Below, piece by piece: positions 29,270 to 41,121 of a DNA stretch of 64,000 nucleotides; position 1 is the stretch's first letter, and every line of letters starts with the position of its first letter. Under the pieces are notes generated by a model. It was given only the letters and a program-made list of their open reading frames with translations, was not told the origin of the DNA and did no database searches. A program made the position numbers and the translations under genes. This stretch comes from Escherichia coli (GTDB lineage Bacteria; Pseudomonadota; Gammaproteobacteria; Enterobacterales; Enterobacteriaceae). The stretch lies in NCBI RefSeq assembly GCF_003334765.1, contig NZ_QOWT01000014.1, one strand, 5' to 3'.

Positions 29270-30055
29270 CTACGCGTCTTCCTGGGGAAGAATGATTTCA
29301 ATTTGGCTGTCTTGTAAGCGTGATTTTAGCGCAGCGGGCGGCAGCTCGTCGGTAAAGAGCGCAGTGACCTGTGCCACGTTACCAATTTCAACCGCCGCCG
29401 AAGCATGATACTTAGTGTGATCGGCGACCAGCAGAATATTTCTCGCGTGCGCCATCATCGTTTTCACCACGTTAGCTTCGTTTACATCAAACTCCATCAA
29501 CGCGCCATCGCTCTCAATCGCCCCAACGCTTGTTACCAGATAATCAGCACGAAAATCAGCCACAAAGGACGCCGCTGAAGGGCCAATGATCCCGCTATTA
29601 TGAGAGCGCAACGTACCGCCGGGCACCATCACTTCAAAGCGCGGGTTGTGGTAAAGAATATGCGCCACACGCAGGCTGTTGGTGATTATCCGCAAATGAT
29701 TATGGTTAAGTAACGCCCGGGCAACATGCTCAACAGTCGTACCAATGGTGATAAATATTGTTGAACCATCAGGAATATAGTCTGCCACCGCTTCGGCAAT
29801 CGCTTTTTTTTCCTCGGTTTGCGAAACCTCACGCTGCTCGAACGCCGTATTAACGACGCTGGAAGCCCGACCCGCGCCACCGTGATGGCGCGTAATCAGG
29901 CCTTGCTCGCTTAATTTACGAATATCCCGGCGGACCGTCTGCGTGGAGACATCCAGCAGATTTGCCAGCTCATCAATATTCATATACCCACGCTCGGCGA
30001 TCAGCATGAGGAGTTGGTCGTGCCGCGGGTTACCGGTTAGTTCGGTAAGGCTCAT
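29270..30055 (-). CDS. csqR: DeoR-family repressor of the sulfoquinovose cluster
   Basis: Track ORF 29270..30079; start at MSLTELTGNPRHDQLLMLIAERGYMNIDELANLLDVSTQTVRRDIRKL; 261 aa. Confidence 0.88.
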   Translation of the reverse strand: MSLTELTGNPRHDQLLMLIAERGYMNIDELANLLDVSTQTVRRDIRKLSEQGLITRHHGGAGRASSVVNTAFEQREVSQTEEKKAIAEAVADYIPDGSTIFITIGTTVEHVARALLNHNHLRIITNSLRVAHILYHNPRFEVMVPGGTLRSHNSGIIGPSAASFVADFRADYLVTSVGAIESDGALMEFDVNEANVVKTMMAHARNILLVADHTKYHASAAVEIGNVAQVTALFTDELPPAALKSRLQDSQIEIILPQEDA

Positions 30056-30088
30056 GAAAATTCCTCGAAAAACCATCACCCTGGCATT

Positions 30089-30985
30089 TTATACAAAAAG
30101 TGACAAAAAAGATCGGGTTTGATCACAGTCAGGGATCCCGGCTCGTCCACCGGGACGTGTGCATTTTAACGCCGCTACACCGCTGGCGAAGCGGACTGAC
30201 TCCGCTAAATCCCCACTTGTTGCCAGCGCCACCGCCAAAGCGCCGTGAAAAACATCACCCGCACCTGTGGTATCTACCACATCAACTTTGAAGGCCGGTT
30301 GATGCTGACGCCCACCATTTTCCAGCCAGTCGCAGCCTGCGCTACCCTGGGTCACATAGACATGACCATTTGTGAGCGTTTGTGCCTGTTTTAGCGCACT
30401 GGCCATCTCTTTCACGCCCGTTAAGCGCGCCAGACCCGGTTCTGAAAAGGCCGCGTGATCGCTTAATGCCACCAGCTCACTGATATCCTGCGGCGTAATG
30501 TCCCCGTCCAGAACGGTCATCACACCCGCCTGACGGGCCAGGGTGAAGGCTTTTTTAGCGCCGTCGTGCCAGCGTACATCTGCCAGCACAACATCCCACT
30601 GAGAGAAATCAATTTCCTCCAACCACTCTGCGTCAGGCAGCAGATCCGGGCTGGGGTAGTTAATGATTATCCGCTCGCCTTTGGTATCCACCATGATGGC
30701 GGATTGCGAAGATTTCGCCTGGTTATACCGTTTGGTGTAACGGGTGTTAACGCCCCAGGATTCCAGCTCTGCCAGCAGGCTGTTGCCCGTGTCGTCATCA
30801 CCTACGCGACCAATAAAATCGACCTGCGCCCCCAGCCTTGCCGCCGCAACCGCTGCCGTCGCCGCTGGCCCGCCACCAACTTCCGTATAATTTCTCGCCA
30901 CGTATTTACCGCTCTCCGTCGGTAACCCTTCCACGTAATAGATGCGATCCATCACGGTTATACCTACACAAGCAACACGAATCAT
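30089..30985 (-). CDS. yihV: Sulfofructose kinase (PfkB/ribokinase family)
   Basis: Start at MIRVACVGITVMDRIY...; PfkB signature DTTGAGDVFHGA; 298 aa. Confidence 0.9.
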   Translation of the reverse strand: MIRVACVGITVMDRIYYVEGLPTESGKYVARNYTEVGGGPAATAAVAAARLGAQVDFIGRVGDDDTGNSLLAELESWGVNTRYTKRYNQAKSSQSAIMVDTKGERIIINYPSPDLLPDAEWLEEIDFSQWDVVLADVRWHDGAKKAFTLARQAGVMTVLDGDITPQDISELVALSDHAAFSEPGLARLTGVKEMASALKQAQTLTNGHVYVTQGSAGCDWLENGGRQHQPAFKVDVVDTTGAGDVFHGALAVALATSGDLAESVRFASGVAALKCTRPGGRAGIPDCDQTRSFLSLFV

Positions 30986-31133
30986 GGTCATTCCTTAAAC
31001 ATTTTGGGATGCGTTCATTTTAATTTCACCAATTGTTTAAAAAGTGACGGCTGTCAATTTTTTGACGATAAATTACAAATACGATCAAAAACAGACAAGC
31101 AAAGCATGTCATAAATGACAAAAAGTGACATCA
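30095..31133. promoter_or_regulatory. Candidate CsqR operators: three copies of AAAAAGTGAC plus TGTCA/TGACA inverted repeats in the yihW and yihV/yihU promoter regions
   Basis: AAAAAGTGAC at 30095-30104, 31039-31048, 31120-31129; gtcaattttttgac at 31053-31066; tgtcataaatgaca at 31107-31120. Confidence 0.4.
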
Positions 31134-31152
31134 CTGTATTCAGGAGAGGGTT

Positions 31153-38915: not shown

Positions 38916-38957
38916 TAATAATAAACGACGCCCTGCGGGGCGTTATAAGGAGTGATT

Positions 38958-40361
38958 ATGTCTGACCATAATCCACTGACATTAAAACTGAATCTGCGGG
39001 AAAAAATCGCCTATGGTATGGGCGACGTCGGTTCGAATTTAATGCTCTGCATCGGTACTCTGTATCTCCTCAAATTTTATACCGATGAATTAGGGATGCC
39101 TGCTTACTATGGCGGGATTATCTTTCTGGTGGCGAAGTTTTTTACCGCGTTTACCGATATGCTCACCGGATTTTTACTCGACTCGCGGAAAAATATTGGG
39201 CCTAAAGGCAAATTTCGTCCCTTTATTTTATATGCAGCGGTTCCGGCGGCGTTAATTGCAACGCTCCAGTTTATCGCCACCACCTTTTGTTTGCCGGTTA
39301 AAACGACGATTGCCACCGCGCTGTTTATGATGTTTGGACTTTCATACAGTCTGATGAACTGCTCGTATGGTGCGATGATCCCGGCAATTACCAAAAACCC
39401 GAATGAGCGCGCGCAGCTCGCGGCTTACCGCCAGGGTGGTGCAACCATAGGGCTATTGATTTGTACCGTGGCGTTTATTCCGTTGCAGTCGCTTTTTTCT
39501 GACTCAACCGTCGGTTATGCCTGTGCGGCACTTATGTTCTCCATTGGCGGCTTTATTTTTATGATGCTGTGCTACAGAGGCGTCAAAGAGCATTATGTGG
39601 ACACAACGCCAACCGGACATAAAGCCAGTATTCTCAAATCATTTTGCGCGATATTTCGGAATCCGCCATTGCTGGTTTTATGCATTGCTAACTTGTGTAC
39701 CCTGGCGGCATTTAATATCAAACTGGCGATTCAGGTCTATTACACCCAGTATGTGCTGAATGATATTAATTTATTGTCGTGGATGGGATTCTTCAGTATG
39801 GGATGCATCCTCATCGGCGTATTACTGGTGCCATTAACTGTAAAATGTTTTGGTAAAAAACAGGTTTATCTGGCTGGCATGGTGCTGTGGGCGGTGGGTG
39901 ATATACTGAATTATTTCTGGGGAAGTAACTCTTTCACTTTCGTCATGTTCTCTTGTGTCGCCTTTTTTGGCACGGCCTTTGTAAACAGCCTGAACTGGGC
40001 ACTGGTACCAGATACCGTAGATTACGGTGAATGGAAAACCGGTATTCGTGCCGAAGGTTCTGTTTATACCGGTTATACCTTCTTTCGTAAAATTTCTGCC
40101 GCACTTGCTGGCTTCTTGCCAGGCATTATGCTGACGCAAATTGGTTATGTTCCCAACATCGCGCAAAGCGATGCGACATTACAGGGTTTGCGTCAGCTCA
40201 TTTTTATCTGGCCTTGTGCACTGGCAATTATTGCTGCATTGACGATGGGATTCTTTTACACACTCAATGAAAAACGGTTTGCATTGATTATTGAGGAAAT
40301 CAACCAACGCAAAAATAAAGAGATGGCGACAGAAGAAAAAACGGCTTCCGTAACGTTATAA
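38958..40361 (+). CDS. yihO: GPH-family sugar:cation symporter (sulfoquinovose importer), paralog of yihP
   Basis: Track ORF 38952 begins GTG; ATG 38958 has AAGGAG upstream; 467 aa; extensive identity to YihP (LKFYTD, KFFTAFTDM, KIGPKGKFRPFILYA, MNCSYGAM.PAITKNPNERA, IQVYYTQYVLND). Confidence 0.88.
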   Translation: MSDHNPLTLKLNLREKIAYGMGDVGSNLMLCIGTLYLLKFYTDELGMPAYYGGIIFLVAKFFTAFTDMLTGFLLDSRKNIGPKGKFRPFILYAAVPAALIATLQFIATTFCLPVKTTIATALFMMFGLSYSLMNCSYGAMIPAITKNPNERAQLAAYRQGGATIGLLICTVAFIPLQSLFSDSTVGYACAALMFSIGGFIFMMLCYRGVKEHYVDTTPTGHKASILKSFCAIFRNPPLLVLCIANLCTLAAFNIKLAIQVYYTQYVLNDINLLSWMGFFSMGCILIGVLLVPLTVKCFGKKQVYLAGMVLWAVGDILNYFWGSNSFTFVMFSCVAFFGTAFVNSLNWALVPDTVDYGEWKTGIRAEGSVYTGYTFFRKISAALAGFLPGIMLTQIGYVPNIAQSDATLQGLRQLIFIWPCALAIIAALTMGFFYTLNEKRFALIIEEINQRKNKEMATEEKTASVTL

Positions 40362-40428
40362 ATGTCAATAGCCGCTATTTCCATCCTTGTGGGTGGCGGC
40401 CTCCCTACGTTTAAAAAATGGACTTATT

Positions 40429-41121
40429 ATGAAAAAGATTAATGCAATAATTTTATTATCTTCTCTGACCTCTGCCTCGGTATTTGCTGGCGCATACGTC
40501 GAAAACAGGGAGGCATATAATCTTGCCTCCGATCAGGGCGAGGTTATGCTACGTGTGGGTTATAACTTCGATATGGGCGCGGGTATTATGTTAACCAATA
40601 CCTACAACTTTCAGCGAGAAGATGAACTAAAACATGGATATAACGAAATTGAAGGCTGGTATCCGTTATTTAAACCAACCGATAAATTAACCATCCAGCC
40701 CGGTGGCTTAATTAATGATAAGAGTATCGGTTCGGGTGGTGCAGTGTATCTGGACGTCAACTATAAATTTGTACCATGGTTTAATCTGACAGTACGAAAT
40801 CGCTATAACCATAATAACTATAGTTCAACAGATTTGAGCGGGGAACTGGATAATAATGACACCTATGAAATTGGCACCTACTGGAATTTTAAAATCACCG
40901 ATAAATTTTCCTATACATTTGAGCCACATTACTTCATGCGAGTGAATGACTTTAATAGTAGCAACGGGAAAGATCATCATTGGGAAATCACTAACACCTT
41001 CCGTTACCGTATTAATGAACACTGGCTCCCTTATTTCGAATTGCGCTGGTTAGACCGCAACGTCGAACCGTACCACCGCGAGCAAAACCAGATCCGTATC
41101 GGGACGAAGTATTTCTTCTGA
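40429..41121 (+). CDS. ompL: Outer membrane porin OmpL
   Basis: Track ORF 40387..41121; start at MKKINAIILLSSLTSASVFAGAYVEN (signal peptide); C-terminal aromatic residue (…TKYFF); 230 aa. Confidence 0.88.
   Translation: MKKINAIILLSSLTSASVFAGAYVENREAYNLASDQGEVMLRVGYNFDMGAGIMLTNTYNFQREDELKHGYNEIEGWYPLFKPTDKLTIQPGGLINDKSIGSGGAVYLDVNYKFVPWFNLTVRNRYNHNNYSSTDLSGELDNNDTYEIGTYWNFKITDKFSYTFEPHYFMRVNDFNSSNGKDHHWEITNTFRYRINEHWLPYFELRWLDRNVEPYHREQNQIRIGTKYFF

Follow-up and report, generated by a model that had tools for sequence, protein, structure and literature searches.

Sulfoquinovose (SQ), a sulfosugar of plants, has been described among the most abundant organosulfur compounds, and the sulfo-EMP route of its degradation was discovered in Escherichia coli K-12. 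Strain MG1655 grows on SQ with stoichiometric excretion of 2,3-dihydroxypropane-1-sulfonate (DHPS) (PMC12608037, PMC6278857), and the DHPS put out by E. coli feeds gut and soil bacteria that produce sulfite and H2S. The genes form the yih cassette, b3875-b3884 (ompL-yihOPQRSTU / yihV-csqR), all of which are induced by SQ in K-12 (PMC12608037). Deletion of yihO, yihS, yihV, yihT or yihU leaves K-12 without growth on SQ in each case (PMC6278857).

The DNA considered here is a stretch of 64,000 nucleotides from E. coli (the window), in which a sequence-only reading had pointed to a complete SQ cluster. We conclude that positions 29270-41121 are almost certainly the known K-12 sulfo-EMP cluster in its prototype form, a conclusion drawn from sequence identity and contradicted by no feature of the sequence; the functions given to its proteins below would carry over from experiments on the identical K-12 proteins. 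The cluster is already described and ordinary, not a new system, and the window adds nothing new to the wider importance of the pathway.

Identity and integrity of the cluster

As a whole, the window is the reverse complement of about 4,040,724-4,104,907 of the MG1655 chromosome, with ~21 SNPs. The ten genes have the content, order, orientation and spacing of the K-12 cassette (Table 1), and the same neighbors flank them: yihX on one side and yihN-yihM-yihL on the other. All ten coding sequences align end to end and without gaps to their MG1655 counterparts, with no amino-acid difference, no frameshift and no internal stop, which bears out the earlier claim that the genes are intact and contiguous in the order csqR to ompL. 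Within the 19 kb around the cluster, four bases differ from K-12, and three of them fall inside it: 31132 in the yihV/yihU spacer, 40388 in the yihO/ompL spacer, and 36693 in yihQ, where codon 416 (L416) reads CTG vs TTG and the change is synonymous. Moreover, many E. coli chromosomes share the 11,852-base region at 100% identity, with the annotation csqR-yihV-yihU-yihT-yihS-yihR-yihQ-yihP-yihO-ompL, so chance is not an issue here.

The outer boundaries are set by two stop codons, 29270 being the final base of that of csqR (minus strand) and 41121 the final base of that of ompL. It is worth pointing out that the longest open reading frames, taken mechanically, overshoot the true starts of csqR (GTG, 269 aa), yihS, yihP, yihO and ompL (TTG at 40387, 244 aa), which leaves the outer boundaries unaffected. 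It is the SNP at 40388 that creates the TTG before ompL, K-12 having TGG there.

The family labels first given to the genes are supported by the identity to K-12, by NCBIfam and Pfam families and by structures in the PDB. The suggested comparison with characterized sulfo-EMP enzymes turned out as expected: for YihQ, YihS, YihT, YihU and YihV, the matching crystal structures bear sulfoglycolysis names in the PDB, and these five core enzymes are the crystallized sulfoglycolysis enzymes themselves. The pathway was also rightly called a described one, and of the metabolic modules in the window (the others are rha, fdo, frv and glnALG) it is the largest. A textbook pathway accounts in full for 11.9 kb of the window, and its exclusion from any search for an unknown system is the sole value of the result here.

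Table 1. Features of the sulfoquinovose cluster; positions are counted from the first base of the window.
Feature	Position	Strand	Basis or remark
csqR (yihW), DeoR-family repressor	29270..30055	-	261 aa; 100% aa identity to K-12 b3884
Copy A of AAAAAGTGAC, csqR promoter (last codons of yihV)	30095..30104	+	candidate CsqR operator element
yihV, sulfofructose kinase (PfkB/ribokinase fold)	30089..30985	-	100% aa identity to K-12; PDB 7AG6 'Sulfofructose kinase' full length
Divergent yihV/yihU regulatory spacer, main CsqR-bound region	30986..31152	.	gSELEX and EMSA in the literature
Copy B of AAAAAGTGAC, yihV/yihU spacer	31039..31048	+	about -28 to -37 from mapped yihV transcription start
Copy C of AAAAAGTGAC, yihV/yihU spacer	31120..31129	+	over yihU transcription starts mapped at -25/-35
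yihU, NADH-dependent sulfolactaldehyde reductase forming DHPS	31153..32049	+	100% identity to K-12; PDB 6SM7 (3-sulfolactaldehyde reductase) full length
yihT, class I sulfofructose-1-phosphate aldolase	32073..32951	+	100% identity to K-12; PDB 7AG1 (sulfofructosephosphate aldolase) full length
yihS, sulfoquinovose-sulfofructose isomerase, also forming sulforhamnose	32968..34209	+	100% identity to K-12
GC-rich palindromic dispersed repeat, yihS/yihR gap	34225..34285	.	sequence; not pathway-specific
yihR, aldose 1-epimerase, putative sulfoquinovose mutarotase	34323..35249	+	100% identity to K-12; PF01263
AT-rich 198-nt gap 5' of yihQ, presumed promoter region of yihQ-yihP-yihO-ompL	35250..35447	+	inferred
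yihQ, GH31 sulfoquinovosidase	35448..37484	+	protein identical to K-12, one synonymous SNP; PDB 5AED/5AEG/5OHT full length
yihP, GPH-family permease, proposed DHPS exporter	37530..38915	+	100% identity to K-12; TIGR00792
yihO, GPH-family permease, sulfoquinovose importer (genetic evidence)	38958..40361	+	100% identity to K-12; TIGR00792
ompL, small KdgM-family outer-membrane porin	40429..41121	+	100% identity to K-12; N-terminal signal peptide (signal-peptide-like N-terminus)

Enzymes and transport

By analogy with K-12, SQ or SQ-glycerol would cross the outer membrane, probably via OmpL, and the permease YihO would import the sugar or its glycoside, as the K-12 knockout indicates. YihQ would release alpha-SQ from glycosides, and YihR is thought to speed the exchange between the alpha and beta anomers. 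YihS would then convert beta-SQ into sulfofructose, sulforhamnose being a by-product, and YihV would phosphorylate sulfofructose at the expense of ATP. The sulfofructose-1-phosphate would be cleaved by YihT, through the Schiff-base Lys193, into DHAP, which would enter glycolysis, and sulfolactaldehyde, which YihU would reduce with NADH to DHPS. The DHPS would be excreted, with YihP as the proposed exporter.

The residues on which this chemistry depends are in place: of the published catalytic and sulfonate-pocket residues, 24 were checked, and every one was found in the window proteins (22 are listed in PMC8006165, and the other two are D405 and D472 of YihQ). YihV carries the sulfonate pocket Lys27-Asn109-Arg138 together with D244, D13 and S95; YihU has N174, S178 and R123 and is a member of the NCBIfam equivalog NF012005 (603 bits vs a cut-off of 348). 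In YihT, the Schiff-base K193 is accompanied by the sulfonate-binding R253 and by A26, S226 and S227. YihS matches both 2RGK (E. coli YihS) and 7AG4 ('Sulfoquinovose isomerase') over its full length and retains the catalytic His248 and His383 and the pocket Arg55-Gln362-Gln379. YihQ has the GH31 domains PF01055, PF21365 and PF13802, the sulfonate motif Arg301-Trp304-Tyr508, and also D405 and D472, which Speciale et al. 2016 reportedly identified as the catalytic aspartates.

The sulfosugar specificity of these enzymes has both a kinetic and a structural basis, and the core enzymes do not act on the glycolytic intermediates that correspond to their substrates (PMC8006165). This inactivity speaks against the proposal that SQ is not the sole substrate and that yihS, yihT and yihV, under YihW and CRP control, also constitute a second, lac-independent route of lactose and galactose degradation. 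The proposal draws on the induction of the three genes by lactose, on the altered growth of a yihW deletion and on the binding of CRP (PMC5816610); lactose as an effector of CsqR, however, was not confirmed by gel shifts, and we consider a lactose route improbable.

YihR belongs to the NCBIfam equivalog NF011719 (617 bits). We place its start at 34323, giving 308 aa as in the K-12 RefSeq entry, with GGGAGG 4 nt before the ATG; the PGAP start at 34347 would give 300 aa. The His/His/Glu triad of aldose 1-epimerases is reported to be conserved in the E. coli protein, whose purification in usable form was unsuccessful. SQ mutarotase activity was measured for a Herbaspirillum homologue, HsSQM, which is 19% identical to E. 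coli YihR, and by this analogy the E. coli enzyme would be an SQ mutarotase as well.

The sequence-only reading had called the porin and transporters dedicated ones. Their presence is established, and both ompL induction and the loss of SQ growth on yihO deletion (PMC6278857) tie OmpL and YihO to SQ, but "dedicated" overstates the evidence, as the role of OmpL is a putative one and YihP is considered only "most likely" to be the DHPS exporter (PMC6278857). Both permeases match the GPH symporter family TIGR00792 over their full length (YihO 529 bits, YihP 537 bits; cut-off 231), and both genes are induced by SQ, yihO with a log2FC of 7.89 (PMC12608037). Since the two permeases, YihP and YihO, are both GPH glycoside:cation symporters and share 65% identity, and since yihO is the only one of the two permease genes among the reported knockouts that lose growth on free SQ, it is conceivable, if somewhat doubtful, that YihP is a second importer, of sulfoquinovosides such as SQ-glycerol, and that DHPS leaves by another route. 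As for OmpL, it is a member of the equivalog NF007434 (472 bits), matches PF06178 in full (positions 1-222 of 222, E 3.5e-91), is related to the sialic-acid channel NanC (2WJQ, E 3e-10) and begins with MKKINAIILLSSLTSASVFA. SQ or SQ-glycosides are proposed to enter through it; the ompL log2FC of 7.29 on SQ rests on just 13-25 reads (PMC12608037).

CsqR, its candidate operator and the intergenic gaps

CsqR would control the cluster from the divergent yihV/yihU spacer and from its own promoter, and CRP would bind the same two regions; the spacer is reported to be bound by sigma-70 RNA polymerase also. SQ, SQ-glycerol and sulforhamnose release CsqR in the published work (PMC8006165, PMC8249747, PMC10991401), and the same would be expected here. 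The window has the clustered genes, a CsqR identical to that of K-12 and a spacer that differs by the single SNP at 31132. The matches of CsqR to DeoR/GlpR families lie under the equivalog cut-offs, and a search for a solved structure of CsqR found none. Methionines stand at positions 1, 17 and 25, the last being a reported alternative start that is kept here.

The 10-mer AAAAAGTGAC occurs three times in the 64 kb against 0.13 expected and is confined to the promoters of the cluster; CsqR may recognize this repeated element as the core of its operator. Copy A, which would lie 12-22 nt before the mapped start of csqR transcription, is kept with one mismatch in the divergent cassette carried by other E. 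coli (see below). Copy B is partly conserved there, as AATTAGTGAT, and copy C is not conserved. An island of the spacer at 31064-31104 is conserved and common to that cassette.

Could the source strain regulate its intact cluster otherwise than K-12 does? The two intergenic SNPs are real, 31132 being 3 nt from copy C and 40388 upstream of ompL. However, no coding change accompanies them in the cluster, and the window has the majority allele at 31132 (2,382 genomes have the exact 65-mer vs 1,232 with one to three differences), which makes altered regulation very unlikely.

Two of the gaps deserve a mention. The repeat between yihS and yihR, which we presume to resemble the E. coli 'BoxC' class, is a dispersed one: an 89-nt query hits E. 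coli genomes at 14 places each in the median, and the window has one copy. Its predicted fold is not better than that of shuffled sequences (z -1.38). In the gap before yihQ, where a promoter was predicted in silico (PMC5816610), a scan for promoter consensus gave scores no better than those of shuffles.

Comparison with other yih cassettes and sulfoglycolytic routes

In the scheme of PMC12608037, the window has the 'long' yih cassette, ompL-yihO-yihP-yihQ-yihR-yihS plus yihTUVW of the K-12 type, the long form being defined by yihT-csqR alleles at least 95% identical to the K-12 type together with the genes ompL to yihS. Among 5,426 complete E. coli genomes, yihQ was found in 3,887, and the csqR-yihT block was at least 95% identical in 4,035 and 60-80% identical in 1,327. 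The latter 1,327 genomes have, in place of the K-12 form, a divergent alternative cassette of ~66% DNA identity. Roughly one E. coli genome in four thus has this alternative.

In E. coli Nissle 1917, UPEC and other strains, a 'short' cassette sits where the long one would be, flanked by bipA/typA and yihX (PMC12608037), and its DNA is only about 66% identical. Its genes for a DeoR regulator, a kinase, a reductase and an aldolase follow the same divergent layout, and its regulator promoter island is conserved with the window. The window does not have this short form, from which yihS, yihR, yihQ, yihO, yihP, ompL and yihLMN are all missing; strain U13A has in their stead two MFS transporters, an aldose 1-epimerase and a Zn-dependent alcohol dehydrogenase. 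In Nissle, the short cassette is not induced by SQ (PMC12608037).

The yihUTSRQPO-yshA and yihVW operons of Salmonella enterica are alike in pathway and organization, as the literature describes them. The Salmonella structures of YihS and YihT (2AFA, 7AG4, 7AG7, 1TO3) give full-length matches to the window proteins, but the proteins are orthologues and not identical, scoring 926-930 bits for YihS vs 993 for the E. coli entry and 563-565 bits for YihT vs 646. Historically, these operons were assigned to the assembly or translocation of the O-antigen capsule, as quoted in PMC7922415, and yih genes recur in the literature on capsules and biofilms. Such a role for the present cluster is scarcely credible: the Yih enzymes are sulfosugar-specific, as noted above, and the NCBIfam search gave no match to a glycosyltransferase, polymerase or flippase family for any of the ten. 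In Salmonella itself, deletion of yihW derepressed the yihU operon 100-fold with no rise in the yield of O-antigen capsule, and the supply of precursor sugar likewise brought no gain (PMC7922415). The capsule role is already largely refuted.

Sulfo-EMP remains the reading that fits the cluster when it is set beside the other routes of sulfoglycolysis. Sulfo-EMP2, sulfo-ED, sulfo-TAL, sulfo-TK and sulfo-ASMO/ASDO start from the same substrate, and several of them include a sulfoquinovosidase and a mutarotase. Their core enzymes, however, are non-orthologous or their chemistry is different, whereas the window has YihS, YihV, YihT and YihU, the set that defines sulfo-EMP.

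Gene content and agreement with the K-12 cassette

Judged from its sequence, the region at 29270-41121 is an already known system, the sulfoquinovose (SQ) sulfo-EMP cassette, with proteins identical to those of the prototype in E. coli K-12 MG1655. The ten genes that a sequence-only reading had placed there, from csqR (also called yihW) to ompL, were borne out by the ORF list and by the annotation of a chromosome 100% identical to the window, and the outer coordinates proved exact, since they fall on the csqR and ompL stop codons. The same reading had called the cluster intact. 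All of the K-12 cluster CDSs align over their full length and free of gaps, with normal start and stop codons and zero amino acid differences; frameshifts and premature stops were looked for in this alignment to K-12, and none was found. The observation is confirmed, the sulfo-EMP interpretation is supported, and the cluster can be safely set aside when the window is searched for unknown systems.

Features of the cluster and known RNA elements in the window. Gene boundaries are from the ORF list and the RefSeq annotation of the 100% identical chromosome; SNPs are window versus K-12.
Feature	Position	Strand	Remark
csqR	29270-30055	-	
yihV	30089-30985	-	
yihU	31153-32049	+	
yihT	32073-32951	+	
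yihS	32968-34209	+	
yihR	34323-35249	+	
yihQ	35448-37484	+	
yihP	37530-38915	+	
yihO	38958-40361	+	
ompL	40429-41121	+	
SNP	31132		yihV/yihU spacer
SNP	36693		yihQ codon 416, CTG vs TTG, synonymous
SNP	40388		yihO/ompL spacer
AAAAAGTGAC copy A	30095-30104	+	12-22 nt upstream of csqR start
AAAAAGTGAC copy B	31039-31048	+	about -28 to -37 from yihV start
AAAAAGTGAC copy C	31120-31129	+	over yihU starts at -25/-35
SECIS element	19484-19542	+	within fdoG
STnc370	44441-44509	-	between yihL and bipA
ES222	46399-46506	-	at GlnZ position 3' of glnA
CsrC	53435-53688	-	
Spot 42	54717-54835	-	

Reverse-complemented, the window corresponds to K-12 MG1655 NC_000913.3 at about 4,040,724-4,104,907, with roughly 21 single-base differences; four differences fall within 19 kb centred on the cluster, three of them inside it. 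The only length difference found lies in the rhaD/rhaA spacer (10190-10418), where a tandem REP-type array with Rfam naRNA4 matches at 10243-10313 and 10335-10405 is about two units (~184 nt) shorter than in K-12. There are four naRNA4/REP matches in the window, and all RNA elements are as expected for K-12; the Rfam scan of the whole window returned nine RNA families, none of them inside 29270-41121.

The SNP at 40388 (T in the window, G in K-12) makes a TTG at 40387-40389, from which a mechanical ORF list stretches ompL to 244 aa; the true start is the ATG at 40429, with a signal peptide after it. The start of yihR is disputed between a 308-aa form (34323, the K-12 RefSeq record) and a 300-aa form (34347, PGAP), and we favour the former because GGGAGG precedes the upstream ATG at a spacing of 4 nt.

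Enzymes, proposed pathway and transport

Full-length matches in the PDB identify YihQ as sulfoquinovosidase (5AED, 5AEG and 5OHT), YihS as sulfoquinovose isomerase (2RGK, which is E. coli YihS, and 7AG4), YihT as sulfofructosephosphate aldolase (7AG1), YihU as 3-sulfolactaldehyde reductase (6SM7), and YihV as sulfofructose kinase (7AG6). The residues listed by Sharma et al. 2021 for the sulfosugar specificity of these enzymes (PMC8006165) are present in the translations from the window: H248, H383, R55, Q362 and Q379 in YihS; K27, N109, R138, D244, D13 and S95 in YihV; K193, R253, A26, S226 and S227 in YihT; N174, S178 and R123 in YihU; and R301, W304 and Y508 in YihQ. The family scan finds GH31 domains in YihQ and an aldose 1-epimerase (NCBIfam equivalog) in YihR. 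D405 and D472, whose catalytic roles in YihQ were reportedly described by Speciale and colleagues in 2016, are likewise found. The earlier wording of “mutarotase-like” for YihR is apt, since SQ mutarotase activity has been shown only for a Herbaspirillum homologue (HsSQM, measured by EXSY NMR) with 19% identity to E. coli YihR, which itself was not purifiable in usable form.

The mechanism proposed here is carried over from experiments done with the K-12 proteins, which are identical. Entry of SQ or SQ-glycerol into the cell would require YihO, and SQ glycosides would be hydrolysed by YihQ. The β-SQ would then be isomerised to sulfofructose by YihS, with sulforhamnose also made, and the sulfofructose phosphorylated by YihV, which would act as a metabolite-regulated control point. 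YihT would cleave sulfofructose-1-phosphate into DHAP and sulfolactaldehyde, and YihU would reduce the latter to 2,3-dihydroxypropane-1-sulfonate (DHPS) to be excreted. Deletions of yihO, yihS, yihV, yihT, or yihU gave no growth on SQ (PMC6278857), and in K-12 RNA-seq SQ induces every gene of the cassette, ompL included (PMC12608037). An older assignment of the Salmonella orthologues would instead have the cluster serve the O-antigen capsule; a 100-fold derepression came without any capsule increase (PMC7922415) and the sulfosugar specificity of the enzymes contradicts it, and we give this assignment almost no credence.

The sulfo-EMP cluster had also been credited with a dedicated porin and transporters, of which the family labels stand. 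YihO and YihP are GPH symporters by family scan, with 65% identity between the pair, and a repeat search inside the cluster recovered their paralogy as 300 nt at 69%, the remaining matches being short and probably due to chance. OmpL is a full-length KdgM-family porin, kin to the sialic-acid channel NanC, with a signal-peptide-like N-terminus. The term “dedicated” for OmpL and an exporter role for YihP are stronger than the evidence. From its co-location, its induction on SQ (log2FC of 7.29, but with only 13-25 reads, in K-12 RNA-seq) and its acidic-sugar channel family, we infer that OmpL may be the SQ porin. The literature grades YihP as DHPS exporter “most likely” and “not experimentally characterized”; because the protein is 65% identical to the importer YihO, a putative role as a second importer is at least as natural. 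A preprint on one clinical-type strain hints at a role of YihO outside of sulfoglycolysis that does not depend on the other pathway genes: deletion of yihO lowered high-level resistance against norfloxacin, erythromycin, and chloramphenicol, an effect not seen with deletions of yihP, yihT, yihU, or ompL.

Regulatory spacers and repeated elements

CsqR is a DeoR/GlpR-family regulator by family scan, which retains Met25, the reported alternative start, and has no match among PDB sequences at E<=1e-10. It would act as a repressor at the yihV/yihU spacer and at its own promoter, to be released by SQ, SQ-glycerol, or sulforhamnose; CRP, too, binds the yihV/yihU spacer and csqR promoter regions (PMC5816610). 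A secondary, lactose-related role of the cassette has been put forward in PMC5816610 and is improbable, if less so than the capsule; lactose was not a CsqR effector in gel shifts.

The 10-mer AAAAAGTGAC is a candidate for the core of the operator through which CsqR would control the sulfo-EMP genes. Exactly three copies are found in 64 kb, where 0.13 would be expected, and none of 100 shuffles reached that number. We placed the copies relative to the mapped transcription starts of PMC5816610. They lie solely in the two promoter regions bound by CsqR, where each overlaps mapped promoter positions; PMC7922415 cites three sites of YihW binding in the region. In the divergent cassette of E. coli U13A, a strongly conserved island retains copy A with a single mismatch, copy B is kept in part, and copy C is not kept; in this comparison the spacer is best conserved at 31064-31104. 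Copy C ends 3 nt short of the SNP at 31132, where the window has the majority allele, its exact 65-mer occurring in 2,382 genomes.

The gene spacing suggests several plus-strand transcription units. The genes yihU, yihT, and yihS are tightly packed, 23 and 16 nt apart, and followed by a 113-nt gap before yihR; yihR and yihQ are separated by 198 AT-rich nt, and the gaps from yihQ through yihP and yihO to ompL are 45, 42, and 67 nt. Such units agree with the “yihUTS operon” described in the literature and with the RNA-polymerase binding in the yihS/yihR gap. A consensus scan of 28500-42600 was uninformative both for sigma-70 promoters (15 vs. 16.9 in shuffled sequence) and for intrinsic terminators (24 vs. 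17.1). The yihS/yihR gap also holds a GC-rich palindromic element at 34225-34285, containing CCCTCTCCCTAACCCTCTCCCCAAAGGGGCGAGGGGAC, which carries no annotation in the K-12 record and which we take to resemble the “BoxC” class. It was rejected as a pathway-specific terminator or attenuator, being a dispersed repeat (14 places in the median E. coli genome) whose fold is not above shuffles (z of -1.38).

Flanking genes and the alternative cassette

The genes yihN (MFS transporter), yihM (TIM-barrel protein), and yihL (GntR-type regulator) abut ompL at 41212-44277 on the minus strand, identical to K-12. The supplementary text consulted for the SQ RNA-seq study lists ompL and yihO, and no mention of yihL, yihM, yihN, or yihX was found in it; on this weak negative evidence the boundaries of the cluster stay at csqR and ompL. 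E. coli SHP24, with a cassette 100% identical to that of the window, has an IS1A just beyond yihN (locus L001, 19310-21191), flanked by gene fragments and then frvX-frvB-frvA, which suggests that an IS1-associated rearrangement joined the yihM and frv regions; the window does not have this arrangement.

Among 5,426 complete E. coli genomes, yihQ is found at a coverage of at least 80% in 3,887, and 3,884 have the region in full. An alternative cassette, roughly 66% identical, replaces the K-12 cassette together with yihLMN in 1,327 of them, about a quarter. Its example in U13A (NZ_CP035477.1, locus L008, 6889-15447) is an eight-gene cluster between typA/bipA and yihX, the same chromosomal slot as 29270-44277 of the window. 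It encodes a DeoR regulator, a sugar kinase, a yihU-like reductase, an aldolase, a Zn-dependent alcohol dehydrogenase, two MFS transporters, and an aldose 1-epimerase, while yihS, yihQ, ompL, and yihLMN are absent; the literature knows it as the “short yihTUVW cassette”, with no SQ induction reported (PMC12608037). By identity the csqR-yihT block falls into two classes, of 4,035 genomes at 95% or more and 1,327 genomes at 60-80%, with one genome between. These classes independently reproduce the long and short cassettes that Kaznadzey et al. 2025 describe, the long form being that of the window.
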